A stretch of 64,000 nt of DNA, from contig CP070780.1 in NCBI GenBank assembly GCA_020346285.1, positions 1,113,021-1,177,020 of the forward strand, read 5' to 3'. This document shows, in pieces, positions 13,291 through 53,128 of the stretch (its first letter is position 1; every line of letters starts with the position of its first letter). The position numbers and the translations under genes were made by a program. A model generated the notes under the pieces. The model was not told the origin of the DNA, did no database searches, and worked only from the letters and a program-made list of their open reading frames with translations. The DNA comes from Candidatus Omnitrophota bacterium (lineage in GTDB: Bacteria; Omnitrophota; Gorgyraeia; JABMRN01; RBG-13-46-9).

Positions 13291-14973
13291 ATGAAAAGAT
13301 TTGTGAAGACCACCGGCCAAATGGCGGAAGCGAGGGATTATTGCTGGGAGGTTTATGAGACGGTACTTGCGCAATTATCCGAAAGGCTGAATTCTATCCA
13401 CAATGTTTCCTATCCTGCCAGGTATTGGGCAATTCTTATGGGTTCCTGGCTTTTACACTTTATCGAGGTGCTCTATGATAGATACAAAAGAATAGAAAAA
13501 ACCTTAGAGCTTTTCCCGGATTTTTACACCAGCGCACTCCCGGAGGAAAAGTGTTCGCTTGTATCTTCCGATACGTATGATTTTTTAGTCAGAAAAGTAT
13601 CACGTAACAATTATTATAACCTCAAGTTATTCAGCATGGTAGTGCGCAAGTTGTGTCCCCAACATGTGAGAGATAGGGATGTTACGCCGAAAGTCGAGAC
13701 CGGACCCAAAACACTTTCCTTTAAGCATAGCCTGAAAAGAGAAATATTTTATAAACTTCTCCGACTATTCGATATCTTTATAAAGAATCCCATAGTTTTA
13801 AGCGATATGTATCATTTGGACCCTATGGATATTCTGGCGCTGAAATTTAAGAGTTTGAAGACACTGGTTTTTATGGATTTCGAGCCATTGCTGGACTATG
13901 ATGTTTCAAAGAATTGCTATTCCGACAGCATGAGAAAGAAACTGAAATTGGGGGAAAGTAGTGATAGATTTCAATCATTGCTTTATAAGGTCATTCCCGA
14001 CGCGATACCCACATGCTATCTGGAGAATTACAGAATATACAAAGACAGTATCGGCCGCGCCAAAAACACGATGCCTATAAGTGCAATAGGGTCTGCCATA
14101 GGTTGGTTTTTTAATGAAAGGTTCAAGTTTTTTGCCGCAGAAGCGTCATTAAAAGGAACTCTCCTTATAGAGTTTCAACGCGGAGGCAACTTCGGTTATG
14201 CCGCTGTTCTCTCACATGAGGCAATGACTTTACTGGAAAAAGATATTTTTTACACGTGGGGATGGACCTCGGAAATAAATAACAAAACAAAACCTCTGCC
14301 GTCTCCACACCTTTCTAAATTGAGAGATACCCATTCAACAAAACTCGATAACGTTTTATTTATAGGTGTAGTTATGTCCCGATATCACTATAGATTTCAA
14401 AGCGCGCTCCTATCCGATGATATGCCTGGCTATTTTGAAGACAAGAAGATATTTTTCCAGGCCCTGTCAGAAGAAATTAAAAATAAGGTCCTATACCGCC
14501 CTTATGTAGATGACCGTGGATGGGGGGAGTTGGATAAAGTAAAAAAAGTATGCCCTAAAGCAAAATTTATATCAAAGGGCAAAGCTATAAAATGGATGCA
14601 GAGAGTAAAGTTGGTGGTTATAGACCATCCGCACACAAGCTTTCTTGAGGCCTTGGCTATTAATGTCCCTTGCGTTTTTTATTGGAAACACGATGTTTAT
14701 TCTATACGCCCGGAAGCAGAGAGGTATTTCGAGCTGTTAAGAGATGCCGGCATTGTTTTTAAGGATCCGTTAAGCGCCGCCGAGAAGGTTAAAGAGATAT
14801 TCAATGACCCGATGAATTGGTGGCAGAGTGACGGCGTTCAAAAAGCCCGCTTCGAATTTTGTAAACGATTTGCTTACGCCGAAAAGAATTGGCTAAAGAT
14901 ATGGACAGAAGAATTAAAAAAATTTCATGTAGACATATCCAAGAAAACAAAAGATGCAAAAGCACATTGTTAA
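13291..14973 (+). CDS. large hypothetical protein, TagF-like/CMP-sugar-transferase-like C-terminal domain (putative surface-carbohydrate transferase)
   Basis: About 560 aa. The C-terminal VKLVVIDHPHTSFLEALAINVPCVFYW resembles the donor-binding segment of TagF/capsule transferases and carries an HP dipeptide, as in sialyltransferase HP motifs. It is a paralogue of the ORFs at 19363 and 51158. I prefer the ATG at 13291. Confidence 0.35.
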   Translation: MKRFVKTTGQMAEARDYCWEVYETVLAQLSERLNSIHNVSYPARYWAILMGSWLLHFIEVLYDRYKRIEKTLELFPDFYTSALPEEKCSLVSSDTYDFLVRKVSRNNYYNLKLFSMVVRKLCPQHVRDRDVTPKVETGPKTLSFKHSLKREIFYKLLRLFDIFIKNPIVLSDMYHLDPMDILALKFKSLKTLVFMDFEPLLDYDVSKNCYSDSMRKKLKLGESSDRFQSLLYKVIPDAIPTCYLENYRIYKDSIGRAKNTMPISAIGSAIGWFFNERFKFFAAEASLKGTLLIEFQRGGNFGYAAVLSHEAMTLLEKDIFYTWGWTSEINNKTKPLPSPHLSKLRDTHSTKLDNVLFIGVVMSRYHYRFQSALLSDDMPGYFEDKKIFFQALSEEIKNKVLYRPYVDDRGWGELDKVKKVCPKAKFISKGKAIKWMQRVKLVVIDHPHTSFLEALAINVPCVFYWKHDVYSIRPEAERYFELLRDAGIVFKDPLSAAEKVKEIFNDPMNWWQSDGVQKARFEFCKRFAYAEKNWLKIWTEELKKFHVDISKKTKDAKAHC

Positions 14974-15014
14974 TAATAAAAAAAACTACATTGCAATATT
15001 CGGGAATATAAACC

Positions 15015-16005: not shown

Positions 16006-17004
16006 ATGGACTTGAGAAAAAAGAAAGTACTTGTAACGGGTTCTGAAGGATTTATAGGAAGCCATCTTGTCGAGAAGCTTTTGGAGGCGGGATGCGATGT
16101 CAGGACGTTTGTTTATTATAATTTTTCCAATTCCTGGGGTTGGCTGGATACCTTTTCAAAGGGTAAGTTGAATAAAATCGAAATTATTACAGGGAATATA
16201 AGAGACCCCAATAATGTCCTAGAGGCCGTAAAAGGGGTAGACGTTATATTTCATCTTGCTGCGCTGATAGGGATTCCGTTTAGTTATCGCTCTCCGGAGA
16301 GTTATGTTGATACAAATATAAAAGGCACCCTTAACATAATGAAGGCAGCGGCGGATTCAGGAGTTGAAAAAATTCTGGTTGCTTCGACATCGGAAGTATA
16401 TGGAAGCGCCAGATATGTCCCCATAGACGAAGAACACCCAAGGCAGGGGCAGTCCCCTTATTCGGCTACAAAAATAGGGGCGGATTATATAGCGCAATCC
16501 TTCCATAGGAGTTTCGGTTTGCCTGTTGTAATTGCCAGGCCTTTTAATACCTACGGGCCGAGGCAGTCTGCAAGAGCGATTATACCGACAATAATAACGC
16601 AGCTTTTATCGGGAAAAAACCGGGTAAAACTCGGCGCATTGGACCCTACGAGAGATTTTATCTTTGTGAAGGATGTGGCTGGTGCAATGGTTGAAATAGC
16701 AAAATCCGACAAGACAACTGGCGAGGAAATAAACATCGCAAGCCAAACCGAGATATCAATAAGGCACCTTGCGCGCAAACTTATAAATATGATTAACCCC
16801 GAAAGTAAGCTGGTAAAAGATGCAGCAAGGTTAAGACCGGAAAATAGCGAGGTAAAGCAGCTTCTGGGCAGCAATAAAAAAATAATGAAGCTGACAAACT
16901 GGAAAACGACATATAATCTGGATGAAGGTTTGAAGGAAACGGTCGAATGGTTTAAAAACAAAGAAAATTTAAAATTGTATAAGTCGGACATTTATAATGT
17001 GTAA
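16006..17004 (+). CDS. NAD-dependent sugar epimerase/4,6-dehydratase (extended SDR)
   Basis: KVLVTGSEGFIGSHLVEKLLEAGCDVR is the Rossmann motif. YSATKIGADY is the YxxxK catalytic motif. ARPFNTYGPRQ is typical of RmlB/GalE-like enzymes. Confidence 0.85.
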   Translation: MDLRKKKVLVTGSEGFIGSHLVEKLLEAGCDVRTFVYYNFSNSWGWLDTFSKGKLNKIEIITGNIRDPNNVLEAVKGVDVIFHLAALIGIPFSYRSPESYVDTNIKGTLNIMKAAADSGVEKILVASTSEVYGSARYVPIDEEHPRQGQSPYSATKIGADYIAQSFHRSFGLPVVIARPFNTYGPRQSARAIIPTIITQLLSGKNRVKLGALDPTRDFIFVKDVAGAMVEIAKSDKTTGEEINIASQTEISIRHLARKLINMINPESKLVKDAARLRPENSEVKQLLGSNKKIMKLTNWKTTYNLDEGLKETVEWFKNKENLKLYKSDIYNV

Positions 17005-18130
17005 AGAGATATATCTGGATGCGCCGAACATCGGAAGATTAGAAAAAGATTACCTTAGCGAAACAATAGATAGCGGTTTTGTATCTACCTTCGGGCCTTA
17101 TATTTCAAAATTTGAAGAAGAAATGGCTAAATACATGGGTGCAAAAAAAGCTGTTTCTACTCAAAGCGGGACTGCCGCACTTCACGTAGCGTTATATGAA
17201 CTCGGCATAGGCAAAGGCGACGAGGTAATAGTTCCTGCATTGACGTTTATAGCCACAGTTAATCCTGTTATATATGTTGGAGCAAAGCCTGTTTTTGCAG
17301 ACGTAGATATTAAAACCTGGAATATTTCTCCGTCAGAAATTGAAAAGAGAATAACAAAAAAAACAAAAGCAGTGATACCGGTTCATTTTTACGGGAATCC
17401 GTGTGATATGAATGAAATAATGGATATTGCCAAAAGACATAACCTCTATGTAATAGAGGATGCAACCGAAAGCCTGGGGGCAAAGTATGATGAGAGGTAT
17501 GCGGGGACTTTCGGAGATTTAAGTTGTTTTAGTTTCAATGGAAATAAAACTATTACTACGGGTGGCGGAGGCATGGTAGCCGGAAATGACGAAAAGAAGC
17601 TGGAGCATATAAAATTTTTGATAAATCAAGCAAGAAATGAATCTAAGGAATATTACCATCCCGAAATAGGCTTTAATTATAGAATGACAAATTTAGAAGC
17701 GTCATTGGGATTAGCACAAATGGAAAGAATCGATGAATTTTTAATTAAAAAAAGGAGATTCCACGATATATACAAAGAAGAACTTAAAGATATTGAAAAT
17801 GTTTATTTTCAGGAAGAATATGAAGAAGCACAAAGCTCCTGGTGGCTATCGTGCGTTATTTTTGGTAACAGCATAGATATACCCCTGTTACAGAAAGAAT
17901 TAAAGAATAACGGAATTCCGACAAGGAGGATTTTTATGCCTGTAATAGAATTTCCACCGTATGAGAACTATAAAAAAAGAGATTATAAAAATTCCTATTA
18001 TATTTATGAAAGGGGCTTATGTCTTCCTAGCTCCACGCTCAATTCCGAAGAGGGCATATATAAGGTTTGCAAAATGTTGAAAAATATCTTGCTAAAAAGA
18101 GGTGAAGGAAAATGCGTAAGGTCTATATAA
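16997..18130 (+). CDS. DegT/DnrJ/EryC1/StrS-family sugar aminotransferase (PseC/LegC-like)
   Basis: IYLDAPNIG..E..YL.E.IDSGFVST.GPY..KFE...A.YMGAKKAVSTQSGTAALHVAL; VIEDATESLGA.Y; GFNYRMTNLEASLGLAQMERIDEFL. Confidence 0.85.
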   Translation: MCKEIYLDAPNIGRLEKDYLSETIDSGFVSTFGPYISKFEEEMAKYMGAKKAVSTQSGTAALHVALYELGIGKGDEVIVPALTFIATVNPVIYVGAKPVFADVDIKTWNISPSEIEKRITKKTKAVIPVHFYGNPCDMNEIMDIAKRHNLYVIEDATESLGAKYDERYAGTFGDLSCFSFNGNKTITTGGGGMVAGNDEKKLEHIKFLINQARNESKEYYHPEIGFNYRMTNLEASLGLAQMERIDEFLIKKRRFHDIYKEELKDIENVYFQEEYEEAQSSWWLSCVIFGNSIDIPLLQKELKNNGIPTRRIFMPVIEFPPYENYKKRDYKNSYYIYERGLCLPSSTLNSEEGIYKVCKMLKNILLKRGEGKCVRSI

Positions 18131-18194
18131 TAGCCGAAGCCGGCATAATCAAAAAGAGTTTTTATGATATAGATTTTAATCTTGGGAGACAGTA

Positions 18195-19271
18195 ATGCTG
18201 AAAAAAGATATTTTAATTAACGAAGGCGCGTCCATAAAGGATGCCTTGAAGAAATTAGATAAGAGTGCTGAGAAGGTATTACTGGTAGTAGATGAGAAAA
18301 GACACCTGTTGGGAACGATGACAGACGGAGATGTCAGGCGCTGTATTTTAACCGGTAAACATCTGGGAGATGGCATAGGCGAAGTCTATCACAAAAAGCC
18401 CATTCATATAAAGAAAAAAGATTTTTCACAAGAAGTAGTGAAAAAGATAATCGTTGGAAAGAGAATAGCGCTCGTGCCGATAGTAGATGAGGGTAATAAG
18501 ATAATAGATTTCGTAACAAGAGATGAGTTATTGTTAGAAGGAAAGATAGAGCCGTTAATTACAGACAAGTTAGATATACCAGTTGTTATCATGGCAGGAG
18601 GAGAGGGCACGAGATTGGACCCCTTCACCAGGATTCTCCCAAAGCCATTAATTCCTATAGATGATAAGCCCATCGTTGAGATAGTTATAGAAGAATTTAA
18701 AAGACAGGGCCTCAGCAAGTATTATTTAACATTAAACCATAAAAGCGGAATGATAGAGGCATATTTTGATGGCATAGACAAAGACTATGAGATAAAATTT
18801 ATAAGGGAAAACACCTTTTTGGGAACCGCCGGCAGCCTAAGGCTTTTAGAGAAAGAGATCGGCAGCATATTCCTTGTTTCTAATTGTGACGTTATTGTTA
18901 AAACAGATTTTGGGGAGGCATTAAATTTTCATAAAGAACAGCGCGCACTATTAACAATTCTCTCTCCCATCCAGCACTACAAGATTCCTTATGGGGTTGT
19001 AGAATTTAAACAAGGCGGAGAGGTTAAAACTATCATTGAAAAACCAGAGTATACCTTTACCGTCAATGCAGGGATTTACGTGCTGAGTAAAGAATCACTG
19101 CAATTTATGCCGGAAAGGTCACGCTTTGATATGACTGATCTGATAAGGGCCTTGATCGAACATGATAAAAAGGTTGTTATGTATCCGGTAAATGAATGTG
19201 ATTATATAGATATCGGGCAATGGGATAAATATCAGAAAACTGTCAGCAGTTTAAAAAGTCGTATGAGATGA
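18195..19271 (+). CDS. CBS-pair + sugar-phosphate nucleotidyltransferase (PtmE-like)
   Basis: The N-terminus has tandem CBS motifs (ILINEGASIKDALKKLDKSAEKVLLVVDEKRHLLGTMTDGDVRR). The C-terminal NTP-transferase domain begins PVVIMAGGEGTRLDPFTRILPKPLIPIDDKPIVE. The same architecture is known from Campylobacter PtmE of the legionaminic acid pathway. Confidence 0.7.
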   Translation: MLKKDILINEGASIKDALKKLDKSAEKVLLVVDEKRHLLGTMTDGDVRRCILTGKHLGDGIGEVYHKKPIHIKKKDFSQEVVKKIIVGKRIALVPIVDEGNKIIDFVTRDELLLEGKIEPLITDKLDIPVVIMAGGEGTRLDPFTRILPKPLIPIDDKPIVEIVIEEFKRQGLSKYYLTLNHKSGMIEAYFDGIDKDYEIKFIRENTFLGTAGSLRLLEKEIGSIFLVSNCDVIVKTDFGEALNFHKEQRALLTILSPIQHYKIPYGVVEFKQGGEVKTIIEKPEYTFTVNAGIYVLSKESLQFMPERSRFDMTDLIRALIEHDKKVVMYPVNECDYIDIGQWDKYQKTVSSLKSRMR

Positions 19272-19363: not shown

Positions 19364-21150
19364 TGCAGTATATGAATCTGACTAAAAATAAAATGATTAT
19401 AGCAGTTACAAACTTAAATCTATTTGCAGCTATTAAATTGCTGACTAAAAATAGCGGTTATACCGTTTTGTATTACGAAAGATGTATCCCCGATTTTTTA
19501 TATCATCTATTAGAAAAAAGGCATCACATCAGAGAGTGCAGCAAAAGAAATAACCCCGAATATCTGAAAAATGTAGAAAATGAAAAAGAAACATTTCACC
19601 TGTCATCTAATATAGCAGGCCATGATGACTTGGCAAGTTTCATGGAAGAGATAAGCGATATCTTTTGTATTAAAAAATCACATATTAAATCCACCATGAT
19701 TAAACATTTTGTCAAATTGATAAGAGACGATATAACCCTGATGGGACTGGTAAAAAATAAATATAAGGCTAATGAAAAGGCTGAATATTGGGTGAAAAAT
19801 TACGACATTTTTACCCGACTCTCTAATTTAAACGATAATTTTATTAAAGTAAGTCAACTAAGATTATTTGATATAGCGTATGCGTGTTACATATCTATTT
19901 GGCCTATCCACATTTTCCTGTTTTTTGTTAACGGTATATTTAAAAAACGTAAGAAGCAAAATATAAAAATCGTATTCCAGCAATCATACAAGAAACGTTT
20001 CGGGCATAATCCGGAATTCGAGGCTTTTTTTAGATATTTTAAGACAAGAAACGATGTGGCTTACCATTGTTTTAAAAAGAGCGATGGAATATATCAGGCC
20101 GTGGAATCCTCCGGCAAGCCGGCTTTTACTACTCGAGATTTAAGATTGCCATTATCGGAAGGTTTATTATTAGGTTCTCTTTTATTTAGATTAGTTTTAC
20201 TTTTCCCTAAATATAATCCCCCCCAGAAGACAACGTTTTGGAGGATACTCCTTTGTATTTTCAGGGAGTATGCAGTAACAAAAAGTATATTACTGGAATT
20301 TTCACCCAAATATTTCATTCGCATACGCCAGGAGCTACACGAAAACCACCCCGTAACAACAGGGGTATGCGAACTTCTCGAATGCAGCCACATTGGTTAT
20401 GAACATGGTCCGCCTGTTTATTTTGTCGCAGATTATGCATTAACGGATTTTCATTATTTAGGTGTAATGGGTAAATCATCTATGACTGACATTTATGAAA
20501 ATTGCAAATCGGATATCAAGTGGTCCGTCCTTGGCCCGATAACCGCAGATATATGTTATGACATGCCTGTCCCGAGACGCGACTTTAAAACCATTACTTT
20601 AATAGCAGATTATTATCTTTTGCCCTGGGGAATTTTTCCTTATGAAAGTTATTTCAACGAAGTATTTTTCCCGCTTATAGATTTTATGAAAAATATAAAG
20701 AACGTGAAATTAGTATATAGAATCAAAGCCGTTAAAAAAGAGGGCAAAGCGGCATATGTAAAAAATTTATGCAAACGGCATAATATAAAGTGTGATATTG
20801 AATATTCAGCATCCGGGAAGGATATCTCCGGTTTTTCCTCATATACACTAAGAAAATCTGATTTGGTTGTTGTTCGCGGTACTTCTACAATTGCCTTTGA
20901 GTCTCTTTCACTTGGGAAAAAAGTCATTGTTTTCTGTAACAATCTAATGAAACACCCGCTGGAATCCTTTGCTCCGAAGTTAGCTGTAAGAAGCGGTGAG
21001 GAATTCAACAAAACAATATCCTGGTTATGGGGTGTACCATATCCTGAATATATCAAAAGTATAGAACATATCATCAGGCAGACTTGCAAGAAAGCAAACG
21101 GGAAAATGGTTAAGGAATTTTTTGAGGATTTTGTAGGAATAGATAAATGA
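19363..21150 (+). CDS. large hypothetical protein, TagF-like C-terminal domain (putative surface-carbohydrate transferase); start uncertain
   Basis: About 590 aa. The C-terminal SDLVVVRGTSTIAFESLSLGKKVIVF...HP has the same pattern as the ORFs at 13291 and 51158. Several candidate starts exist (TTG 19360, ATG 19363, 19372, 19393). Confidence 0.35.
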   Translation: MQYMNLTKNKMIIAVTNLNLFAAIKLLTKNSGYTVLYYERCIPDFLYHLLEKRHHIRECSKRNNPEYLKNVENEKETFHLSSNIAGHDDLASFMEEISDIFCIKKSHIKSTMIKHFVKLIRDDITLMGLVKNKYKANEKAEYWVKNYDIFTRLSNLNDNFIKVSQLRLFDIAYACYISIWPIHIFLFFVNGIFKKRKKQNIKIVFQQSYKKRFGHNPEFEAFFRYFKTRNDVAYHCFKKSDGIYQAVESSGKPAFTTRDLRLPLSEGLLLGSLLFRLVLLFPKYNPPQKTTFWRILLCIFREYAVTKSILLEFSPKYFIRIRQELHENHPVTTGVCELLECSHIGYEHGPPVYFVADYALTDFHYLGVMGKSSMTDIYENCKSDIKWSVLGPITADICYDMPVPRRDFKTITLIADYYLLPWGIFPYESYFNEVFFPLIDFMKNIKNVKLVYRIKAVKKEGKAAYVKNLCKRHNIKCDIEYSASGKDISGFSSYTLRKSDLVVVRGTSTIAFESLSLGKKVIVFCNNLMKHPLESFAPKLAVRSGEEFNKTISWLWGVPYPEYIKSIEHIIRQTCKKANGKMVKEFFEDFVGIDK

Positions 21151-22549: not shown

Positions 22550-22590
22550 AAAGCAGAGATTTTTAATTGAAAAATTGGAGGGAAAAGTAT

Positions 22591-23562
22591 ATGGAACTCA
22601 AAGAAGCTGTTAAAAACAGAGTTGCTTTAGGTAAAAGGCCAAGATTGATTGAAAATGTATTGCTAATTGAGGGAATTGCCAGGGCAGGGAAATTTCTGCT
22701 TGCGAATTGCCTCTGTGCCATAAATGATGTAGAACATACCTGCTCCAACGGCCTTTTAGACAATATTCCTTTTATGGTAAAATTCAAACTGCTCACGCCA
22801 GAGGCAGCCGAAGCCCTTATTCAGAACATAATAGATAACTCGGGGTACGATATCATGATAGGGAGAAATCTCAATTTTCGATACGATGACAAGAGCTGTA
22901 TTTATAACTCCCCAAGGCTAAAAGAATATCTGGACAGGAGCCTAAACTCTGACCGAGATGTTATTGTAGAACAGATTAAAAATAAAAGGCGTTATTTTAT
23001 GCATATTGTCCACCAGGGTTTTCCGAATATCGAAATATTCCTTCGGATGTATTCTAAGATTAAGGTCATTAGAATTGAAAGACATCCCGTTGATTTAGTT
23101 TATTCATGGTTTCAGAGGGGGTTTGGCCGGCGATTGGGCCGAGATGCCCGATTATTTATTATACCGATCCAAGGAATAAAAGGGCCTATACCGTGGTTTG
23201 CACATGAATGGGCCGAGGATTATGAAAATTCATCCGAGATGGATAGAGTAATCAGATTCCTTTACTATATAAATGAAAAAAGCAAGGAAGCATATGTTAA
23301 TCTAAACATGGAAGATAAAAAAAAGATACATACCGTGTCGTACGAGCGCTTACTTACAGAGACAGACGAAGAAATGAAAAAAATAAGCATTTTTCTGGAT
23401 AAAAAAATATTGCCAGGGATCGAGCTAGTCAAGGCGCGCGAAAGAATCCCGGCACCTAATCCTGCATTGGTAAGGAATAAAAAAATGAATTTTATTAAAA
23501 AACAGACTACACCGAAAATCTTTTCCGCACTTATGGCGATGGAAAATGGATACGAGAAATAG
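22591..23562 (+). CDS. sulfotransferase-family protein (P-loop, PAPS-dependent type)
   Basis: IEGIARAGKFLL resembles the 5'-PSB P-loop (PK.G(T/S)T.L). IRIERHPVDLVYSW resembles the 3'-PB motif (R(D/N)P.D...S.Y). I prefer the ATG at 22591 (GGAGGG RBS). Confidence 0.55.
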   Translation: MELKEAVKNRVALGKRPRLIENVLLIEGIARAGKFLLANCLCAINDVEHTCSNGLLDNIPFMVKFKLLTPEAAEALIQNIIDNSGYDIMIGRNLNFRYDDKSCIYNSPRLKEYLDRSLNSDRDVIVEQIKNKRRYFMHIVHQGFPNIEIFLRMYSKIKVIRIERHPVDLVYSWFQRGFGRRLGRDARLFIIPIQGIKGPIPWFAHEWAEDYENSSEMDRVIRFLYYINEKSKEAYVNLNMEDKKKIHTVSYERLLTETDEEMKKISIFLDKKILPGIELVKARERIPAPNPALVRNKKMNFIKKQTTPKIFSALMAMENGYEK

Positions 23563-44505: not shown

Positions 44506-44519
44506 GAAGGAATATAAGA

Positions 44520-46280
44520 TTGAAGGCTTTAACTTTTATTCGTGATATCTTCAGAAAATATCCCACATTAGTTACAGTTACAACGGTACTGGTAGTTTTT
44601 GTTAGTGTAGTTGAGGCGGCTTGTCTTTTTACCGTTGGCCCGCTTGTTGATGTTTTAATTCATCCTGCTCTCGAGAACATCAGCCCTCTTACCCAAAAGG
44701 TAATGAACGTTATGCAATTTTTTGATATTCCACTGGTATTAAAAAGCTGCTTAATTGTTTTTATTGTATTTGTCATTTTAAGCAGCGCTTTGCGTATCTT
44801 GGTGCGGTATTCTATTTTGAGTATTAAATATATCGTGCTTCGCGATCTTACGGTTGGAACATTTAGTGATTTTTTCCACGCGAGGTGGTATTTTTTTAGC
44901 AGCAGTGGACAGGGCAAACTTTTAAATACTTTCCTGCGCGAACTTAATATTGTAGCCGAGGCCTTCAGGGCAGTAGCATATTTTTTTGCGGGGACCTTGC
45001 AATTAATTTTTTATCTGGCAATTCCGTTTTATATCTCCTGGCAAGTGACGAGCATTAGCCTTATGAGCGCAATTTTACTTTCCTGCCCCTTTATTTTACT
45101 CGGGAAAATCTGCTATTGGTTAGGTAAATTGAATACCGAGACAAGCAATCGGCTAGCCGCCCTCATACAGGAGAACTTTACATTAGCCAAAGTTGTTCTG
45201 GGCTTTGGCAAGCAAGAAAAAAGCATTGATAATCTTGCTTCTACTTTTGATGTTCATCGCAAAATAACCGTTAAGAGCCAGACAATTAACTTAGCCATAC
45301 CAATTCTTTATCGCCCGCTTGGCGTGGCGGTATTAGCTGCGGCCATTATTTCGGCGCAATGGTTCAAAATTCCCATTTCAGAAATGGCAGTATTGCTATT
45401 GGCATTGCTGCAGGTTGTTGTCTCTATAGGTAATTTGATAATGCGAAAAAATTCACTGGATAACTCCCTTCCCAGCTATGAACAGGTCAATGATTTACAA
45501 CGTAAAGCAAAAGAATGGAAGCAAGCCACGGGCGGTAAAATATTTTCGGGGTTTAATAAAGAAATAATTATTGAAGGTGTTTCGTTTGCCTACCCGGGGC
45601 ATGAGCCGGTGTTAAAGGACATTAATGTTAAAATTCCGAAGGGAAAAATGATTGCCTTTGTTGGTAAATCAGGCGCGGGAAAATCAACGCTGATTGACAT
45701 GATTATGGGATTTAACGAATTTATAACCGGGCGAATTACATTTGATGGCGTGAATATCGAAGAATTTAACGTCAGTTCATATCGTAAGCGCATCGGTTAC
45801 GTACCTCAGGACAGCATTCTTTTTAATATGACTATTAGAGATAACTTGCTCTGGGCCAAGGAAGATGCTACCCAAGAGGAGATCAAGTATGCTTGCCGCC
45901 AGGCAAACGCAGATGAGTTTATAGAAGCATTTTCGCATGGGTACGATACATTAGTGGGGGACCGTGGTATTCGCCTGTCAGGTGGCCAGTGCCAAAGGGT
46001 AGCATTGGCCAGAGCGATATTAAGGAGACCCGAGCTTCTTATTCTGGATGAAGCTACCAGTTCTCTGGATAGCCGTTCCGAACGATTGATCCAAGAGGCC
46101 ACTGAAAATATTGCCAAGGAAACCACGGTTATTGTCATTGCGCATCGCCTTTCCACGATTGTAAATGCGGATTATATGTATGTAATGGAAAAAGGAAGGA
46201 TAGTCGAACAAGGGATATATTCTGACCTGGTTAAAATGAACGGCCATTTTAACCGTATGGTAAAACTTCAGGTATTGTAA
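44520..46280 (+). CDS. ABC transporter, fused permease/ATPase exporter (MsbA/PglK-like)
   Basis: The N-terminal half has six predicted TM segments. The ATPase has Walker A (GKSGAGKST), the ABC signature (LSGGQCQRVALARA) and Walker B (ILILDEATSSLD). Confidence 0.85.
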   Translation: MKALTFIRDIFRKYPTLVTVTTVLVVFVSVVEAACLFTVGPLVDVLIHPALENISPLTQKVMNVMQFFDIPLVLKSCLIVFIVFVILSSALRILVRYSILSIKYIVLRDLTVGTFSDFFHARWYFFSSSGQGKLLNTFLRELNIVAEAFRAVAYFFAGTLQLIFYLAIPFYISWQVTSISLMSAILLSCPFILLGKICYWLGKLNTETSNRLAALIQENFTLAKVVLGFGKQEKSIDNLASTFDVHRKITVKSQTINLAIPILYRPLGVAVLAAAIISAQWFKIPISEMAVLLLALLQVVVSIGNLIMRKNSLDNSLPSYEQVNDLQRKAKEWKQATGGKIFSGFNKEIIIEGVSFAYPGHEPVLKDINVKIPKGKMIAFVGKSGAGKSTLIDMIMGFNEFITGRITFDGVNIEEFNVSSYRKRIGYVPQDSILFNMTIRDNLLWAKEDATQEEIKYACRQANADEFIEAFSHGYDTLVGDRGIRLSGGQCQRVALARAILRRPELLILDEATSSLDSRSERLIQEATENIAKETTVIVIAHRLSTIVNADYMYVMEKGRIVEQGIYSDLVKMNGHFNRMVKLQVL

Positions 46281-47272
46281 TGAGAAACATAATAATCGAG
46301 GTAAATTCAAATTTCCACCATATTGCCGGCGAGGATCTTTCCGATAAGGCGGACAATCGCTTCAGGGAATACAGGAAAAAGTGGGAAGAGTGGCCGAAAA
46401 ATTTCCATACGGGGGAATTTCCTCTTTTTATTGATGTTGAGGCAACAAGTGCTTGTAATCTGAAATGCCCTTTTTGTGCCACCACGTTCATGGAGAAGAG
46501 AATAAAAAAAGGATTTATATCATTTGATATCGTAAAGGGGATAATTGACGAAGGTGCCGAGAACGGCTTATACGGAATAAAACTTAACATTAGAGGAGAG
46601 CCGTTATTACATCCCCAGATTCACGATTTTGTAGAATATGCTAAAAAGAGAGGCCTTATAGATGTTTATTTCAATACCAATGCCATGCTACTTACGGAAG
46701 AGATTTCAAGGAAGTTGGTTGATGCGGGACTCGATAGGATCTCGATTTCTTTTGAAGGTTTCACGAAAGATGTTTATGAAGAATGCAGACCGGGCGCAAG
46801 CTATGAAAAGGTTTTGGCAAATATCGAAAATTTACAGACGTTAAAAAGAAAACTCGGTGTTGACCACCCAAAAGTGAGAGTTCAGGCAGTAATGATGAAA
46901 GATTTGTGGCCCACCTTTGATGAATATAAAAAATTCTGGTCAGAGCGAGCGGATGAGGCAGGCTTTCTGGACTTTAAAGAAATGAAGCGCAAAAGAACGG
47001 GTATTCGGTATCCATGGGCCTGCCCGCAAATTTGGCAGAGGATGGCTGTTTGGTGGGATGGCACCGTATTACCCTGTAACCATGATGACGACGGTCTCCT
47101 TGCGCTTGGAAACATACAAAAGGTGTCAATAAAAAAAGCATGGAATTCGCGAAAGTTGCAAGAGATAAGAAATAGCCATAAAAATGGAATCGCGCACGAA
47201 CTTAGTGCATGCAACGGGTGCTATTTACGGGATAGCGAGATACTCAAGCTTGTCGATAAGGATAAGTTGTAA
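46280..47272 (+). CDS. radical SAM protein with SPASM-like C-terminal domain
   Basis: FPLFIDVEATSACNLKCPFC is the radical SAM motif. The C-terminus reads CPQ....WDGTVLPCNHDD...SACNGCY. Confidence 0.8.
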   Translation: MRNIIIEVNSNFHHIAGEDLSDKADNRFREYRKKWEEWPKNFHTGEFPLFIDVEATSACNLKCPFCATTFMEKRIKKGFISFDIVKGIIDEGAENGLYGIKLNIRGEPLLHPQIHDFVEYAKKRGLIDVYFNTNAMLLTEEISRKLVDAGLDRISISFEGFTKDVYEECRPGASYEKVLANIENLQTLKRKLGVDHPKVRVQAVMMKDLWPTFDEYKKFWSERADEAGFLDFKEMKRKRTGIRYPWACPQIWQRMAVWWDGTVLPCNHDDDGLLALGNIQKVSIKKAWNSRKLQEIRNSHKNGIAHELSACNGCYLRDSEILKLVDKDKL

Positions 47273-48018
47273 TGATTATAGCCATTTTAATGGGAAGAAA
47301 AGGAAGTGTGGGATTTCCCGGTAAGAATGTGTACAGTGTTCTGGGAAGGCCCCTTGCGCATTACCCGATGAGAGCCGCGAAGAATTGCCCTGAGATTGAT
47401 AGGATATACCTTTCTACGGATGACAGACAACTTGCAAAACTCGCAAAAGCAAGTGGCGTGGAGGTTATTAAGCGGCCGCCCAAATTGTGCACTGATAAAG
47501 CCCTCGGCGAAGATGTGTACCTTCATGCATATAATTACGCAAAGAAGAAGAACAAGGTTCAAAAGATCGACCAGGTTATTTTGTTAATGTGTAACGCTGC
47601 TACTATTATGTCCGCAACAATTTCAAAAGGAATAAAAATTTTAAAGAAACACCCGAATTATGATTCCTGCGTTACTGTATCAAAGTATAATATGTGGAGC
47701 CCATTAAGGGCAAGAAAGATTGACAGTGACAATCTTTTAAAACCTTTTATTCCCCTTGAATTGTTTGCTGGCTCAAAGAAATTAAATTGCGACAGGGATT
47801 CACAGGGTGATGTATGGTTTGCCGATATGGGCGTTTCGATAGTCCGGCCCCGGTGTTTAGAAAATATAAAAGCGGGGCTACTTCCGCAAAAATGGATGGG
47901 GCAAAGAATATACCCACTTAAGCAAGATGGCGGCCTTGATGTCGATTACGAATGGCAGATACCGCAAATCGAATACTGGCTGAGAGAACATGGTATTTCC
48001 GGCATAAATAAGGAGTAA
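47272..48018 (+). CDS. cytidylyltransferase of the CMP-NulO/CMP-Kdo synthetase family (second copy)
   Basis: MIIAILMGRKGSVGFPGKNVYSVLGRPLAHYPMRAAKNCPEIDRIYLSTDD matches the N-terminal signature of CMP-sugar synthetases. Confidence 0.7.
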   Translation: MIIAILMGRKGSVGFPGKNVYSVLGRPLAHYPMRAAKNCPEIDRIYLSTDDRQLAKLAKASGVEVIKRPPKLCTDKALGEDVYLHAYNYAKKKNKVQKIDQVILLMCNAATIMSATISKGIKILKKHPNYDSCVTVSKYNMWSPLRARKIDSDNLLKPFIPLELFAGSKKLNCDRDSQGDVWFADMGVSIVRPRCLENIKAGLLPQKWMGQRIYPLKQDGGLDVDYEWQIPQIEYWLREHGISGINKE

Positions 48019-48022
48019 ACTG

Positions 48023-48763
48023 ATGGGTAACAAGGGCTCAAAAGGGACTGTTTTGATAACCGGCGCAACCGGCGACATAGGACGAGCAATAGCAACCAGA
48101 TTCGCCGGAGGGGGTTGGAATATAATATGCCACTATTTTTCCTCAAAAGAAAGGGCCGTGGCACTGAAGAGCATAATCGAAAAATACAAGGTCAATTGCG
48201 CTTTATTTAGGGCTAATTTGTTGTCGGAGAGGCAATTATCGGTTTTTATTAGCAGGCTTAAGAAAATTAATATTGATAGCCTTATTAATAACGCCGGCAC
48301 TTGTGTTGGGCACAAGCATTTCGATAGATTAACAGTCCGTGATATCACGAGTACATTTATGGTAAATACCTTCGCGCCCACATTACTTGCCGCGGCCGTA
48401 TTTAAGCGCATGAAGGCCAGGCGGTTCGGAAGGGTCGTTAATATAAGCTCGATTGCCGCCAAATACGGCAGTTCGAGCCATTCCATACATTATGGCACTT
48501 CTAAACTTGCATTAGAGGGGTTGACAAAAACCCTTGCCAGAGAAGGCGCCAAACACAATGTGCTTGTAAATACAATCAGGCCGGGCGTGATAAATACAAA
48601 ATTTCATAAAAAATTTCCGAAAGACATGAAAAAAAGAGTTAAACTTATTCCATTAAGAAAGATAGGCACACCGGCTGATATAGCGGATATGGCGTATTGT
48701 CTCGGTAGCGAAAAAAATAATTTTATAACGAATGAAATTATAACAATATCCGGCGGAGAATAA
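48023..48763 (+). CDS. short-chain dehydrogenase/reductase (classical SDR)
   Basis: TVLITGATGDIGRAIATRFAGGGWNI..., YGTSKLALEG, ITNEIITISGGE. There is an AAGGAG RBS. Confidence 0.85.
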   Translation: MGNKGSKGTVLITGATGDIGRAIATRFAGGGWNIICHYFSSKERAVALKSIIEKYKVNCALFRANLLSERQLSVFISRLKKINIDSLINNAGTCVGHKHFDRLTVRDITSTFMVNTFAPTLLAAAVFKRMKARRFGRVVNISSIAAKYGSSSHSIHYGTSKLALEGLTKTLAREGAKHNVLVNTIRPGVINTKFHKKFPKDMKKRVKLIPLRKIGTPADIADMAYCLGSEKNNFITNEIITISGGE

Positions 48764-48786
48764 CTTTAAAGACTGGAGGAACAAAA

Positions 48787-49665
48787 ATGAAGATAATAGT
48801 ATTCGGAGGTTCGGGATTTTTGGGCAGCCACGTTGCCGATGTACTTTCAGAAAGAGGCCATGATGTTACTATATTTGATTTAAAGCCGTCCTCGCATTTA
48901 AAAGGCAATCAAGAAATAGTAATCGGGGATATCTTGGATAAAAAAGCTGTGGAAGACATGGTAAAAGCAAAAGATTATGTCTATAATTTTGCAGGTATCG
49001 CGGATATTGACATAGCAAAGATTAATCCTACCGAAACAATCAGGCAGAATATACTGGGTAATTCCATAATCCTTGAGGCCTGCCACAAGCAGAGAATCAA
49101 GCGAATTCTCTATGCCTCTTCCGTATATGTCTATAGCAATTCCGGCTCTTTTTACCGTACCAGCAAACAGGCCTGCGAACTTCTCATAGAAGACTACCAG
49201 AAAGCTTATGGGCTCAATTTCACTGTAATGCGTTACGGCTCGCTTTATGGCCCACGCGCCGACGAAAAAAACTGGGTATACTGCATATTGAAGGATGCGC
49301 TTACGAAGGGTAAGATAACAAGAAAAGGTGATGGAGAGGAAATCAGGGAGTATATCCATGTCCATGACGCAGCCAGAATAAGCGCGGACCTTCTGGATGA
49401 GCGGTACGTTAACGAGTTCGCCATTATATCGGGAAATCAGACGATTAAGATAAAGGATCTTCTAGTGATGATTAAAGAAATAATGAATAATAAAATCGAA
49501 ATCGAATATGTTCCTGCAGGATATGAGGAGCATTACGAGGTTACGCCGTATTCATTCAACCCGAGAATCGCGAAAAAAATAATTAGTAATTCATACCTCG
49601 ATCTTGGCCAGGGAATCCTCGACATCATAGAGCGAATTTATAAGGAAACCCCGCAATGCGCATAA
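48787..49665 (+). CDS. NAD-dependent epimerase/dehydratase (extended SDR)
   Basis: MKIIVFGGSGFLGSHVADVLSERGHDVTIFDL; YRTSKQACE (YxxxK). Confidence 0.8.
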   Translation: MKIIVFGGSGFLGSHVADVLSERGHDVTIFDLKPSSHLKGNQEIVIGDILDKKAVEDMVKAKDYVYNFAGIADIDIAKINPTETIRQNILGNSIILEACHKQRIKRILYASSVYVYSNSGSFYRTSKQACELLIEDYQKAYGLNFTVMRYGSLYGPRADEKNWVYCILKDALTKGKITRKGDGEEIREYIHVHDAARISADLLDERYVNEFAIISGNQTIKIKDLLVMIKEIMNNKIEIEYVPAGYEEHYEVTPYSFNPRIAKKIISNSYLDLGQGILDIIERIYKETPQCA

Positions 49666-51158
49666 GGGATAAATTCAGAGTTTTGTTTATATACCCGAAT
49701 CTTATGATGAGCACATTGGTACCTATACATATATCGCTTTTATCCTCTTGCCTGAAACAAGAGGGTTTTCAAACAGATTTATTCGATACCACTTATTATA
49801 AAACAGAAGAGATAAGTTTTGATGAAAAAAAGGTCGAATTATTGCAGGTAAAAAAATTCAACTTGGAAGAACAAGGAGTAAAATATAAAGAAACTGATAT
49901 GTATGAAGATCTGATAAAGAAAGTAAAGGACTATAAACCGGACCTTATTGCTATAACCCTGGTCGAGGATACTTACGAGTTGGGTTTATCGTTGTTAAAC
50001 GCTATTAAAGATTTTGATATTCCGGTAATTGCAGGAGGGGTTTTTGTTACATTTTCTCCGGAGAAAACAATTACCAACGAAAATATTGATATGATATGCA
50101 TAGGCGAAGGCGAAGAAACCCTGGTAGAATTATGCGACAAGATGCGTAAAGGGCAAGATTATCCCATGGTCAAAAACTTGTGGATAAAACAAAACGGCAA
50201 AATTATAAAAAACGAACTAAGAAAAATAACAGACATAAATAATCTTCCTTTCATCGATTATGATATATTTGAGCCAAAGAGATTATATAGGCCTATGTAT
50301 GGCAGGATTTATACGATGATACATATTGAGCTGGACAGAGGCTGCCCCTATGAATGCTCTTACTGCGAATCGCCCCAGCTCAGGCGGCTTTACAGGGAGA
50401 AAGGTTGCGGTGTCTATTACAGAAAGAAAAGTGTCGCGAGAATTACCGAAGAATTAAAATGGTTGCTTAAAAAGTATAACCCCGATTATATCTATTTCAA
50501 TTCCGAATCATTTCTCGCAAAATCTCCAGCGGAACTCGGGAAATTCGCTAATCTGTATAAGCGGGAAATAGGCCTTCCTTTCTGGTGCCAATCGAGGCCA
50601 GAAACGGTTACAGAAGAGAAAATAAAAATTCTTAAAGATACGGATTGTCAGAACCTGCAATTTGGCATTGAGCAAGGGAATGAAAACTTTAGGGCAAAGA
50701 TTCTGAAGCGCAGGTGCTCTAATAAACAGATAATAGATGCCATGAAGCTGGTAGAGAAATATAAGATAGCTTATACGGTTAACAATATAATAGGCTTTCC
50801 TGATGAAACAAGAGAGCTAATCTTCGATACAATAAATATAAATCACCAGATTAATCCCACGACGCTTAATTGTTATATATTTGCGCCTTACAGAGGTACA
50901 TATCTTTATAACTACTGTTTAGAAAAGGGTTATCTTACCGAAGATTACAAGATACACCAATTGCTGGATGGTGCGAGATTAAGAATGAATAGCATTACAT
51001 ACGAAGAGTTAAAAGGATTGCAAAGGACATTTCCGCTTTACGCAAAAATGCCGGAGGAGAAGTGGCCGAAAATCAGGATTGCCGAGAGATTTGACGAAGA
51101 AGGAAATCGTATGTTTGAAAAATTACGAAAAGTGTATTATGAAAGATATTTCAAATAA
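49656..51158 (+). CDS. B12-binding (class B) radical SAM protein
   Basis: The N-terminal domain has VIAGGVFVTFSP. The radical SAM motif is ELDRGCPYECSYCES. Confidence 0.8.
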   Translation: MRIRDKFRVLFIYPNLMMSTLVPIHISLLSSCLKQEGFQTDLFDTTYYKTEEISFDEKKVELLQVKKFNLEEQGVKYKETDMYEDLIKKVKDYKPDLIAITLVEDTYELGLSLLNAIKDFDIPVIAGGVFVTFSPEKTITNENIDMICIGEGEETLVELCDKMRKGQDYPMVKNLWIKQNGKIIKNELRKITDINNLPFIDYDIFEPKRLYRPMYGRIYTMIHIELDRGCPYECSYCESPQLRRLYREKGCGVYYRKKSVARITEELKWLLKKYNPDYIYFNSESFLAKSPAELGKFANLYKREIGLPFWCQSRPETVTEEKIKILKDTDCQNLQFGIEQGNENFRAKILKRRCSNKQIIDAMKLVEKYKIAYTVNNIIGFPDETRELIFDTININHQINPTTLNCYIFAPYRGTYLYNYCLEKGYLTEDYKIHQLLDGARLRMNSITYEELKGLQRTFPLYAKMPEEKWPKIRIAERFDEEGNRMFEKLRKVYYERYFK

Positions 51159-53128
51159 TGAAAAGCATACTCTTTGTATTTGATTCCGGGATAAAAATGA
51201 AAAAGAACCTTAAATTACCGATTACATCCGGAGATTCGATATATTTGTTCCCCCTGACCTCAAAGATTTCCGTAACAGGGGCAATCTTGGAAAAAATCAA
51301 ATCTTTAAATGCCGTTTGCGTTACAATCCCCACCGGAAACGCGGTTAATTCCGCAGCCGAGAGAATAAGGGAAAGGTATATACGGTTTATAGCAGAAATC
51401 ACAAATCAGGTTAAATGCGACAACAGAAACTTAAGAGAAATTTTTGCCGTTGACCGGTACGCCAGCCTGTGGTGGCTTGGCCTTGTCTCCGAGAAGAATA
51501 CAATTAAATCCGACGTTTTTAATATTCTTGCGCAGCTCGACTCGATTGTCGAAACAATAAAAAATAAAAAGATTAGGAAAGTTATATTTGGTTGCGACAA
51601 CGAGAAATTAAAAAGTGTATTACGCGAATACGCCTCCAAAAATAGCATGGCATTTAAAGTTTTGCCTGTCAAGAAGGAAAAGGACATAAAAAAACGTTTT
51701 CGGAAGAGTCAAAGGTTATTTTACCTGCGCCATATTCTATCTTTGTTAAATACCGCATTAAAATTCTTTTTTAGGGCCAAAAAAATCAAGCGCAAACTCA
51801 AGGGCCTGCATTTACCTCCGCCCGGGCGAAGGGAATTTGCGACGATTACATATTATCCGAACATTGATGTTTCTCTTGCGCGTAAGGACATCTTTAAGAA
51901 CAGGTACTACAATAAATTACAGGAAGCGCTGGAAAATGAGAAGAAGAATATCGTATGGGTTGCCCTGTATGCAGAGAATAATTCCATATCGTTTAAGGAA
52001 TCCTTAGAGTACCTGGAACAGTTTGTAAAAGCAGGCTACGATATATTCTTTCTGGAAGAGTTTAACTCAATAAACGCAGGGATAAAAAACCTCCTCTATA
52101 TGCTTCGAAGCGGATTAAAGTTTATCAGGCTTGAGGAAAACATTCGCCGCGAACATGTTTTTGACGGTTACAATTTTTATTCACTCCTCAGAAATGACTG
52201 GTTTGCGTCATTTGTGGGAAGCGTGGGTTATTCGGGCCTTTTATTTTACAGCATGTTTAAGGCGTTTTTCAATAAAATTAAGGCTGAAAAATGCTTGTAT
52301 TTCTGCGAAATGCACGCATGGGAAAAGGCGCTCATATATGCAAGGGATGCCGTGGGTTCGAAAACGGCATTATTCGGTTACCAGCATAGTACGGTGTCGA
52401 AAATGCTTTTGAACTACTTTAATAAACCGGACGAAATAAGGAAACTTCAAAATTATATGTTTCCGCAACCGGACAGAATTATCTGTGACGGCCCACTTCC
52501 CCTGAGGTACCTGAAAGAGTCAGGCTGGCCCGAAGATAAACTTACGATTGCGGAGGCCGTACGTTATGACCATTTGAGAAAACAAATATGCAAGAGCCGG
52601 GAAAAAAAGAAAAATACGGTACTCCTGGCGCTTTCCATTAGCACAGAAGAAAGCAGCTCGATTCTTAACATTACTTACCAGGCGCTCAATCAGTTAAAAG
52701 AAATGGAAGTTTGGATTAGGCCGCATCCATTCGCATCCGTGGAAGATATATTTAAGACCTCCGGCATATCCAAAAAAAATCTTACGTTTTCAATCAGAAA
52801 CGAACCCATCGAAAAATTGTTATCCGAAGCCCATATAGTTATTGTCGGATTCTCGGGAGTTTCTGTAGAGGCCGTAGCGTTTGGTTGCAGGATTGTGACA
52901 GTTAATGTCCCCGAATGGATTAATATGTCGGCTTTAAAAGATATAAAGAGCGAGATTGTAAAAACCGCCGGTTCGCCCGCGGAATTACGGGAAATTGTTA
53001 TTAAAATCACCAAAGAGAAATACGACTTTCAAATGATTAAATCCGAATCCAAAAAGATAATAGACGCTTTCTTTTACCTAGATCGGAAATCTGACGTTCC
53101 GGAGCGGTTTATCGAATTACTCAAGTAA
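51158..53128 (+). CDS. large hypothetical protein, TagF-like C-terminal domain (putative surface-carbohydrate/CMP-sugar transferase)
   Basis: 656 aa. The C-terminus reads VWIRPHPFASVED...AHIVIVGFSGVSVEAVAFGCRIVTVNV, with an HP motif and the TagF/sialyltransferase-like segment. It is a paralogue of the ORFs at 13291 and 19363. Confidence 0.35.
   Translation: MKSILFVFDSGIKMKKNLKLPITSGDSIYLFPLTSKISVTGAILEKIKSLNAVCVTIPTGNAVNSAAERIRERYIRFIAEITNQVKCDNRNLREIFAVDRYASLWWLGLVSEKNTIKSDVFNILAQLDSIVETIKNKKIRKVIFGCDNEKLKSVLREYASKNSMAFKVLPVKKEKDIKKRFRKSQRLFYLRHILSLLNTALKFFFRAKKIKRKLKGLHLPPPGRREFATITYYPNIDVSLARKDIFKNRYYNKLQEALENEKKNIVWVALYAENNSISFKESLEYLEQFVKAGYDIFFLEEFNSINAGIKNLLYMLRSGLKFIRLEENIRREHVFDGYNFYSLLRNDWFASFVGSVGYSGLLFYSMFKAFFNKIKAEKCLYFCEMHAWEKALIYARDAVGSKTALFGYQHSTVSKMLLNYFNKPDEIRKLQNYMFPQPDRIICDGPLPLRYLKESGWPEDKLTIAEAVRYDHLRKQICKSREKKKNTVLLALSISTEESSSILNITYQALNQLKEMEVWIRPHPFASVEDIFKTSGISKKNLTFSIRNEPIEKLLSEAHIVIVGFSGVSVEAVAFGCRIVTVNVPEWINMSALKDIKSEIVKTAGSPAELREIVIKITKEKYDFQMIKSESKKIIDAFFYLDRKSDVPERFIELLK

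Follow-up and report, generated by a model that had tools for sequence, protein, structure and literature searches.

Three predicted GT-B proteins as candidate nonulosonate transferases in a glycan gene cluster of Candidatus Omnitrophota

Which enzymes attach nonulosonic acids to glycans in a bacterium whose genes for making these sugars are accompanied by no recognizable sialyltransferase? The question is raised by a 64-kb stretch of DNA from a metagenome-assembled genome of Candidatus Omnitrophota (the whole stretch is referred to here as the window), in which a single long gene cluster with a G+C content of ~40% extends on the plus strand from ~5.7 kb to 63.3 kb. Two nonulosonate routes are encoded in it. 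Route 1 (6300-12217) starts at 6300 with genes for a PseC-like aminotransferase, a dehydratase of the short-chain dehydrogenase/reductase (SDR) type and an LmbE-like deacetylase, and continues with a PseF-like cytidylyltransferase (9014-9655), WbqC (9646-10365), a NeuB-like synthase (10366-11241) and a PseG-like protein (11228-12217). Route 2 is split between LegB (471.9 bits), LegC (431.3 bits) and a CBS/nucleotidyltransferase gene at 16006-19271 on the one hand and, at 59058-61234 on the other, a NeuB/LegI-type synthase (59058-60062; 506 bits against TIGR03569) and a NeuC-type 2-epimerase (60059-61234; 309 bits against Epimerase_2). A second, divergent cytidylyltransferase gene is located at 47272. 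Pfam and NCBIfam scans of the locus found no match to a sialyltransferase family, just as an earlier note on this DNA had stated. Four other glycosyltransferases are present, namely TIGR04372 (43285-44505), GT2 (54029-54955), a second GT2 on the minus strand (3032-3775) and GT4 (478-1563).

The same note had singled out three large proteins as paralogues that share a C-terminal motif and had named them the best candidates for the missing transferases. All three open reading frames (ORFs) exist on the plus strand, and the segments quoted from them, VVIDHPHTSFLEALAINVPCVF, VVVRGTSTIAFESLSLGKKVIVF, IVIVGFSGVSVEAVAFGCRIVTV and IRPHPF, are indeed present. We term the proteins P1 (13291-14973), P2 (19372-21150) and P3 (51158-53128); the identical proteins at NCBI are the hypothetical proteins JSV93_05385, JSV93_05410 and JSV93_05545. 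Both nonulosonate pathways look complete without them, leaving transfer as the remaining step. The reading that we favor, and to which we attach an even chance, is that P1, P2 and P3 are glycosyltransferases dependent on cytidine monophosphate (CMP)-activated donors, which add the nonulosonates of the locus, or tailored derivatives of these, to a lipid-linked glycan. We favor it because the routes appear to be complete without the three proteins, because of their glycosyltransferase fold, their large size and their membrane-proximal features, and because genes for NeuB and/or a cytidylyltransferase accompany their families.

Families, predicted folds and mutual relationship

Family alignments comprised 40 (P1), 42 (P2) and 40 (P3) sequences, and the P1 set was later extended by nine distant homologues to 49. 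P3, with 656 residues, is a TIGR04326-like 'surface carbohydrate biosynthesis protein'. Its score of 243.3 bits (E 4.5e-72) is 7 below the curated cutoff of 250, the match covers positions 18-560 of the 602 in the profile, and homologues with 27-47% identity are annotated as TIGR04326 by both JGI and NCBI. P1 is a 'LIC12162 family transferase' (TIGR04331/PF27859) with a score of 390.7 bits against TIGR04331, which is above the curated threshold of 225; homologues with 40-58% identity bear the family name and carry the newer Pfam model PF27859. The P1 reading frame (13276/13291-14973) encodes 560 residues when counted from the ATG. P2 belongs to a rare family without a name. Its reading frame (19360/19372-21150) encodes 592 residues, 585 according to NCBI, and no NCBIfam or Pfam model, TIGR04326 included, matches it. 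A word-indexed search returned seven relatives and an exhaustive profile search of 1.84 billion representative proteins 58 clusters.

The AlphaFold models of P3 (predicted local distance difference test, pLDDT, 91.7; predicted template modeling score, pTM, 0.91) and P1 (pLDDT 91.2, pTM 0.91) are confident, and both contain two Rossmann-like alpha/beta domains with a cleft between them, that is, complete predicted GT-B folds. The C-terminal GT-B domain that the earlier note had expected is therefore present in both models. For P3, the model places an extra alpha/beta domain (~1-220) and a long amphipathic helix (188-214) in front of the GT-B part (~225-620). P2 would adopt the same fold, as judged from its profile alignment with the P3 family, and its residues 168-186 (IAYACYISIWPIHIFLFFV, encoded at 19873..19929 and followed by KKRKK) have a mean Kyte-Doolittle hydropathy of 1.89 over 19 residues and probably form a membrane-embedded helix. 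The three proteins are hence best described as three different predicted GT-B enzymes.

The copy of P1 in the window is an unusual member of its family. The conserved N-terminus of the LIC12162 proteins (YLATTGI...LLGPWC...PSPWKP, ~48 conserved residues) is missing: profile positions 1-44 are lost, the match begins at position 45, and the protein thereby lacks strands 1 and 2 of its N-terminal domain. No upstream frame encodes the missing segment, and the preceding radical S-adenosylmethionine (SAM) gene ends at 13275, leaving no coding room. In addition, the family signature FQHGG(G) is altered to F-Q-R-G-G at residues 295-299 (14173..14187), where the candidate catalytic histidine is replaced by Arg297 (codon CGC, 14179-14181). 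This histidine occurs in 38 of the 40 aligned sequences and in 47 of 49 when the distant members are added; the first of these values is the unbiased one, as the 23 loci used for the analysis of gene neighborhoods were found with the pattern FQHGGG[YF]G and are biased in this respect. On both counts P1 departs from the full-length LIC12162 architecture. The two anomalies could reflect gene decay or an assembly error, and judged by its sequence the protein of this genome may be inactive or altered.

The GT-B fold is not confined to transferases. It is common to UDP-N-acetylglucosamine (UDP-GlcNAc; UDP, uridine diphosphate) 2-epimerases and PseG as well, and such proteins are among the best structural matches: a Foldseek search with P3 places 2-epimerases on top (E 2e-9) and a polysialyltransferase (5wcn) at rank 44 (E 2.6e-7). 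P1, P2 and P3 might accordingly be no transferases at all, but enzymes of the NeuC/PseG/Epimerase_2 type that hydrolyze or 2-epimerize nucleoside diphosphate (NDP)-sugars, or other modifiers of sugar nucleotides inside the pathways. Besides the structural matches with NeuC/2-epimerase-type enzymes, a weak match of P3 to Epimerase_2 speaks for this possibility (12 bits, E 0.096, with a gathering threshold of 30.6), the only hit that rose above noise when the three proteins were scanned against Pfam at E 1; P1 and P2 do not match this model, and weak matches occur in just 2 of the 40 P3-family members. 2-Epimerases carry a glutamate in an H-x-E-A-G motif. As far as can be read from the sequences, this glutamate has no counterpart in FQHGGG or in GYQH(A/S/T), the corresponding element of the P3 family, and the Epimerase_2 threshold is reached by neither family. 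Moreover, dedicated NeuC-like and PseG-like genes already reside in the locus, the former a bona fide one by its score, and the extra N-terminal domain and the hydrophobic helices of P2 and P3 fit membrane-proximal transferases. We judge a hydrolase or epimerase function to be quite improbable.

How closely are the three proteins related to each other? Close paralogy was rejected: pairwise BLASTP among P1, P2 and P3 yielded no significant match (best E 0.31-3.4), and the family assignments differ. Comparison of family profiles recovered part of the proposed relationship. The P2 and P3 families align with 96.2% probability (E 2.4e-9) over 353 columns, joining residues 196-590 of P2 to 223-656 of P3, that is, the whole GT-B part, and from this we conclude that they are genuine distant relatives, with the P2 family as a distant branch of the P3 superfamily. 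The link between the P1 and P3 families is weak (70%, E 4e-5; 87.5%, E 3.6e-6 over 229 columns once the nine distant P1 homologues were added), and P1 and P2 profiles reach 1.5-38%. As a control, the P1 family was compared with an unrelated GT-B family, a PseG-like profile of eight sequences, which gave 64.7% over 72 columns. The P1-P3 link therefore lies modestly above generic GT-B resemblance, and P1 appears to share with P3 hardly more than membership of the GT-B superfamily. Alignments of family profiles with single GT-B sequences of the window by hhalign were uninformative as a further control, with even true pairs at ~2%.

The C-terminal motif itself held up well. Its three elements, a hydrophobic strand, a serine or threonine and E-A-L, fall into one register in the profile-profile alignments of all three families, and the likeness is for this reason no artefact of reading. 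It comprises residues 441-460 of P1 (LVVIDHPHTSFLEALAINVP, 14611..14670), 498-517 of P2 (LVVVRGTSTIAFESLSLGKK, 20863..20922) and 560-577 of P3 (IVIVGFSGVSVEAVAFGC, 52835..52888), and corresponds to the nucleotide-binding strand-helix element of GT-B proteins. The Ser/Thr and Glu residues (T449/E453, S505/E510 and S566/E571, respectively) are each found in at least 90% of the family members: T449 is invariant, as is P460, E453 is present in 45 and N458 in 47 of 49 sequences, S505 in 39 and E510 in 40 of 42, and S566 in 36, E571 in 38 and G576 in 38 of 40. A regular expression for the motif matched the three targets and three unrelated ORFs, with 0.76 matches expected from shuffled sequences; it was written after the motifs had been seen and is given little weight for that reason. 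The proposed resemblance to the donor-binding region of enzymes using CMP-sugars or CDP-glycerol (CDP, cytidine diphosphate) was borne out as far as a nucleotide-binding element is concerned, but this element is generic to GT-B proteins and carries no signature specific for CMP-sugars.

It could be argued from these results that the grouping is artificial, the three proteins having unrelated functions and a common motif that indicates nothing but a common fold. The absence of BLASTP similarity, the low values for P1 against P2, the fact that the PseG control nearly equals the P1-P3 comparison and the different conserved neighbors of the families would agree with such a view. It is countered by the extended alignment of P2 with P3, by the QH, basic-residue and S/T..E motifs, which stand in a common register in all three proteins, and by the occurrence of all three families near CTP_transf_3 cytidylyltransferase genes (see below). 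Among the alternatives weighed here we regard it as the least probable.

Gene neighborhoods of the three families

The genetic environment was inspected in 10-kb flanks, for the P1 family in 23 loci from species-representative genomes and for the P3 family in metagenomic sequences, of which 33 loci with a length of 12 kb or more were used. The P1-family loci span Omnitrophota, Planctomycetota (Scalindua, Anammoxibacter), Nitrospirota, a deltaproteobacterium, Legionellaceae, Leptospira, Sedimenticola and Pelagibacteraceae. NeuB is encoded within 10 kb in 17 of the 23, often directly adjacent, and the gene immediately upstream of the P1 homologue is often one for NeuB, PseG or a cytidylyltransferase. 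In the Legionellaceae locus a cytidylyltransferase is present and NeuB is not found within 10 kb. The module that lies upstream of P1 in the window (6300..13275), consisting of route 1 and a radical SAM/SPASM gene, also precedes P1 homologues elsewhere.

For P2, the environment is similarly suggestive. In the window, the gene lies directly downstream of LegB, LegC and the CBS/nucleotidyltransferase gene of route 2 (16006..19271). A P2 homologue in a related locus, L108, is likewise preceded by a pair of DegT and CBS/nucleotidyltransferase genes, and in a metagenomic locus, L109, the homologue directly follows DegT, PglD, Epimerase_2, NeuB, CBS/nucleotidyltransferase, B12-radical SAM and CTP_transf_3 genes, a full set for a legionaminic-type sugar. 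The NeuB of L109 (5482-6422) is split into adjacent ORFs of 211 and 102 residues, which may be due to a frameshift or a sequencing error.

A different picture emerged for the P3 family. In the window, P3 is preceded by a module (46280..51158) of genes for a radical SAM/SPASM protein, the divergent CTP_transf_3 cytidylyltransferase (47272-48018), adh_short, an epimerase and a B12-radical SAM protein, and this module is kept in P3-family loci. An orthologue of the cytidylyltransferase is encoded within 10 kb in 15 of the 33 loci, and a CTP_transf_3 gene is also present in all three distant loci inspected; SDR/epimerase genes are present in 26-27 loci, a B12-radical SAM gene in 24 and GT2 in 18. 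Distant P3 homologues retain the order CTP_transf_3, radical SAM/SPASM, aminotransferase, methyltransferase, B12-radical SAM and P3-type gene. On one JGI contig, route 1, P1, Wzx, CTP_transf_3, adh_short, B12-radical SAM and P3 are assembled within 20 kb. Co-occurrence with neuB and neuA, proposed in the earlier note as a check, was thus observed for the P1 family and for a P2 homologue with a full set of genes, whereas the P3 family co-occurs with a cytidylyltransferase and not with NeuB. Since this partner cytidylyltransferase is divergent, the donor of P3 may not be a nonulosonate.

Gene context bears directly on the possibility that the three proteins are ordinary GT-B transferases for NDP-sugars, i.e., hexoses linked to UDP, guanosine diphosphate (GDP) or deoxythymidine diphosphate (dTDP), that build other parts of the glycan, while the nonulosonates are added by another protein, such as the TIGR04372 glycosyltransferase or one encoded elsewhere. 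This explanation gains from the generic nature of the common C-terminal motif, from the dTDP/UDP-type dehydratases, RmlD-like reductases and nucleotidyltransferases that the locus also encodes, and from the rarity of NeuB near P3-family genes. It does not account for the tight association of P1-family genes with NeuB, PseG or cytidylyltransferase genes across unrelated phyla or for the P2 homologue that directly follows a cytidylyltransferase gene, and the K-x-H-P element of P3, together with its weak matches to KpsC and Capsule_synth (see below), also speaks against it. We consider it a serious though unlikely contender.

Published information on these families is scarce. Our searches for LIC12162, TIGR04331, TIGR04326 and the family names turned up a single, incidental mention: the neuABC genes of Herbaspirillum seropedicae AU14040 are followed by one gene each of the TIGR04326 and LIC12162 families, for which the authors proposed a role in the transfer of N-acetylneuraminic acid (PMC6679464). 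A paper on nonulosonates in Leptospira gives no locus tags for transferases, and tblastn searches of PLSDB plasmids with P1 and P3 returned no match.

Candidate residues and proposed mechanism

[quoted passage not shown] No significant sequence or structure match to the KpsC/KpsS family was reached with the three proteins. The likeness is closest for P3. When its profile was compared with PDB sequences, the sole matches were three KpsC chains, aligned over the HP and S..E-A-L motifs (KpsC residues 175-253), and Capsule_synth is the Pfam family most often matched in the P3 family, weakly and in 7 of 40 members (best E 5.6e-5). Profile searches of PDB sequences with the P1 and P2 alignments returned nothing relevant.

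P3 resembles KpsC in K-x-H-P and in S..E-A-L. Its HP motif, R521-P-H523-P524 (52718..52729), was aligned by hidden Markov model with K192-V-H194-P of KpsC and is almost invariant (K/R521 in 40, H523 in 39 and P524 in 40 of 40 sequences). The earlier note had pointed to HP dipeptides in two of the proteins. That of P3 is conserved at the KpsC position, while the DHPH of P1 sits in a different strand, is partly conserved (H446 in 32 and P447 in 26 of 40) and is gone in distant family members. In P1 the place of H523 is taken by Y405 and in P2 by K452, and P3 alone has the HP of the C-terminal domain that is found in KpsC. A basic residue two positions upstream is common to all three (R403 in P1, K/R450 in P2 and K/R521 in P3). 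In the hhalign register R403-P404-Y405 of P1 (14497..14505), situated where the second C-terminal-domain strand ends, is aligned with K/R521-P-H523 of P3 and is a candidate phosphate-binding site; R403 is found in 48 of 49 sequences. The QxxxD motif that provides the aspartate nucleophile of KpsC (PMC10148158) is absent from the P3 family, and S493...E498 (52634..52651; each residue in 37 of 40 sequences), immediately behind strand 1 of the C-terminal domain, would lie at roughly that place.

The second feature common to the three families is a histidine that follows a strand of the N-terminal domain. In P3 it is H410 in Y408-Q409-H410 (52379..52387; Q409 in 39 of 40 sequences, GYQH with H410 in 34 of 40), a candidate general base. 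In P2 it is H345 of G342-Y-E-H345-G (20395..20409), which aligns with the QH histidine of P3 in the profile register; G342 and Y343 are each conserved in 38 of 42 family members and H345, within GYxHG, in 29 (Cys in 10). The FQHGGG of the P1 family is the third instance. As far as sequence allows the equivalence to be drawn, these elements resemble VIQVW-H300 of TarL. This resemblance would agree with a role of the proteins as TagF/TarL-like phosphotransferases or polymerases that transfer alditol- or sugar-phosphate from a CDP-linked donor to a teichoic-acid-like or capsule-like polymer, and CTP_transf_like/PfkB genes are indeed present in some related loci. Yet no Pfam match to Glyphos_transf was obtained even at E 1, the profile searches of PDB sequences found neither TagF nor TarL, and the cytidylyltransferases linked to these genes belong to the CMP-acid type (CTP_transf_3), not to the TagD/TarI type. 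Such a function strikes us as very improbable.

Two further groups deserve comparison. TagB-like GT-B proteins act as pseudaminic and legionaminic acid transferases in Tannerella forsythia (Tanf_01245, TFUB4_00887; PMC5420450). They comprise 442-445 residues, and the proteins studied here are 120-210 residues longer. P3 has a conserved HP that may correspond to that of bacterial sialyltransferases (GT38 polysialyltransferase, GT52, GT80), and the class of donor would be the same. The motif set of the sialyltransferases combines D/E-D/E-G with HP (Freiberger et al. 2007, cited in PMC5420450). When the P3 family was inspected for D/E-D/E-G, no conserved instance came to light; the nearest candidate position has C-N-G (C443 in 36, N444 in 32 and G445 in 38 of 40 sequences).

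Returning to CMP-dependent transfer as the favored function, we propose that P1, P2 and P3 would work as membrane-proximal enzymes that take a CMP-activated sugar provided by the neighboring modules, be it a nonulosonate of the pseudaminic or legionaminic type or a derivative with heavy tailoring, and pass it on to a growing, probably lipid-linked, surface glycan. The C-terminal Rossmann domain would bind CMP via the S/T...E-A-L strand-helix element and the basic residue that ends the second strand, the latter being part of R403-P-Y in P1, K/R450-x-K452 in P2 and K/R521-x-H523-P524 in P3. The (Q)H histidine after the N-terminal-domain strand would deprotonate the acceptor hydroxyl, as H300 of TarL and H444 of TagF do, and transfer from the CMP-sugar would proceed with inversion. 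P3 might alternatively follow a retaining route like that of KpsC, with E498 as the nucleophile. Donor, acceptor, stereochemistry and catalytic roles are in each case what we infer from the sequences, models and gene context described above.

A number of observations weigh against this proposal. NeuB is encoded within 10 kb of P3-family genes in only 1 of 33 loci, and the cytidylyltransferase that accompanies them is so divergent that its Pfam match has E 3e-14 and none of the NCBIfam models matches it at E 1e-20. The P3-profile match with KpsC has an E value of about 0.4, P1 and P2 are without an HP motif at the equivalent position, and UDP-GlcNAc 2-epimerases or NeuC are no less frequent than transferases among the top structural matches. 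The fold of P2 is predicted from the profile alignment with the P3 family; the P1 of the window is truncated, carries the H297R exchange and may for its part not be functional. No characterized member was found in the literature for any of the three families, and the four other glycosyltransferases of the locus are alternative candidates. When everything is taken together, the view that the three proteins are the best candidates for the nonulosonate transferases is favored by the fold, the K-x-H-P of P3 and the gene context, and is weakened by the generic motif, the apparently damaged P1 and the four competing glycosyltransferases. The evidence for a CMP-linked donor is best for P3, and that for a link with nonulosonates is best for P1 and P2.

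Further contents of the cluster and wider meaning

Among the other glycosyltransferases of the window, the TIGR04372 protein (43285-44505) had been missed in the earlier note. It scores 228 bits with a cutoff of 45, has no Pfam match and is a candidate for one of the transfer steps; a gene for an ATP-binding cassette exporter with a fused membrane domain adjoins it downstream (together 43285-46280). The NeuB-like synthase of route 1 comprises only 291 residues, and its NCBIfam match ends at position 277 of the 329 in the profile, in the place of the expected C-terminal SAF domain. Since the orthologue on a JGI contig (L112, 1973-2851) is equally short, with 292 residues, we take this to be a family trait rather than a truncation. 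Two DegT/PseC-like ORFs look incomplete: that at 57427-58359 (310 residues) covers just positions 79-185 of a profile of 360, and that at 6300-7307 (335 residues) covers positions 19-274 of the 380 in the PseC profile.

The cluster also encodes enzymes that are unusual in their kind or number. In a 738-residue ORF (23546-25762), a pyruvate kinase (residues 5-348) is joined with a sulfate adenylyltransferase (353-734), an unusual combination. A sulfotransferase-like ORF (22567-23562) precedes it, a second one (61256-62494) follows NeuB and NeuC, and the glycan of the cluster is probably sulfated. Ten radical SAM genes are located in the 64 kb (starting at 12214, 15015, 21161, 37302, 38376, 41265, 46280, 49656 and 54952 on the plus strand and extending over 1603-3039 on the minus strand); five of the encoded proteins have B12-binding domains and several have SPASM domains. 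The enrichment recurs in related loci of other phyla (13 of 23 and 24 of 33 loci) and suggests that the sugars are extensively C-methylated or otherwise tailored by radical reactions. Thiamine-diphosphate enzymes, too, form a block (25684-27519, 29669-31799 and 33832-37300) that is embedded in the glycan operon. It consists of two acetolactate-synthase-like genes, an E1 alpha/beta pair and a split transketolase, interspersed with a class I/II aminotransferase and an SDR gene; split transketolase genes are also present in the related loci L107 and L108.

Two of the three families treated here, TIGR04331 and TIGR04326, already have names in databases, and a role in transferring sialic-acid-like sugars has already been suggested for them. 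What is new is the P2 family, along with the residue map. Few bacterial nonulosonic acid transferases are known, examples being KpsS1 (GT118), Maf and FlmG, which glycosylate flagellin, and the TagB-like Tannerella enzymes, whereas the two named families adjoin nonulosonate or cytidylyltransferase genes in many phyla, Leptospira and Legionellaceae included. As a tentative generalization, with the chances somewhat against it, the LIC12162, TIGR04326 and P2 families may constitute three new glycosyltransferase families outside CAZy that transfer pseudaminic-type, legionaminic-type or more tailored CMP-sugars, with the QH histidine as base and [K/R]-x-[H/K/Y] in place of the classical HP, and may account for the nonulosonate transferases that are 'missing' from Leptospira, Legionellaceae, anammox Planctomycetota, Nitrospirota, Pelagibacteraceae and Omnitrophota. 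Sites that offer themselves for testing are the QH histidine, the K/R-x-H/K/Y element and, in P3, E498, and the P1 copy of this genome is probably a poor choice for expression. If transfer from CMP-sugars proves true, these proteins would represent new glycosyltransferase families and provide enzymes for making nonulosonate glycoconjugates.

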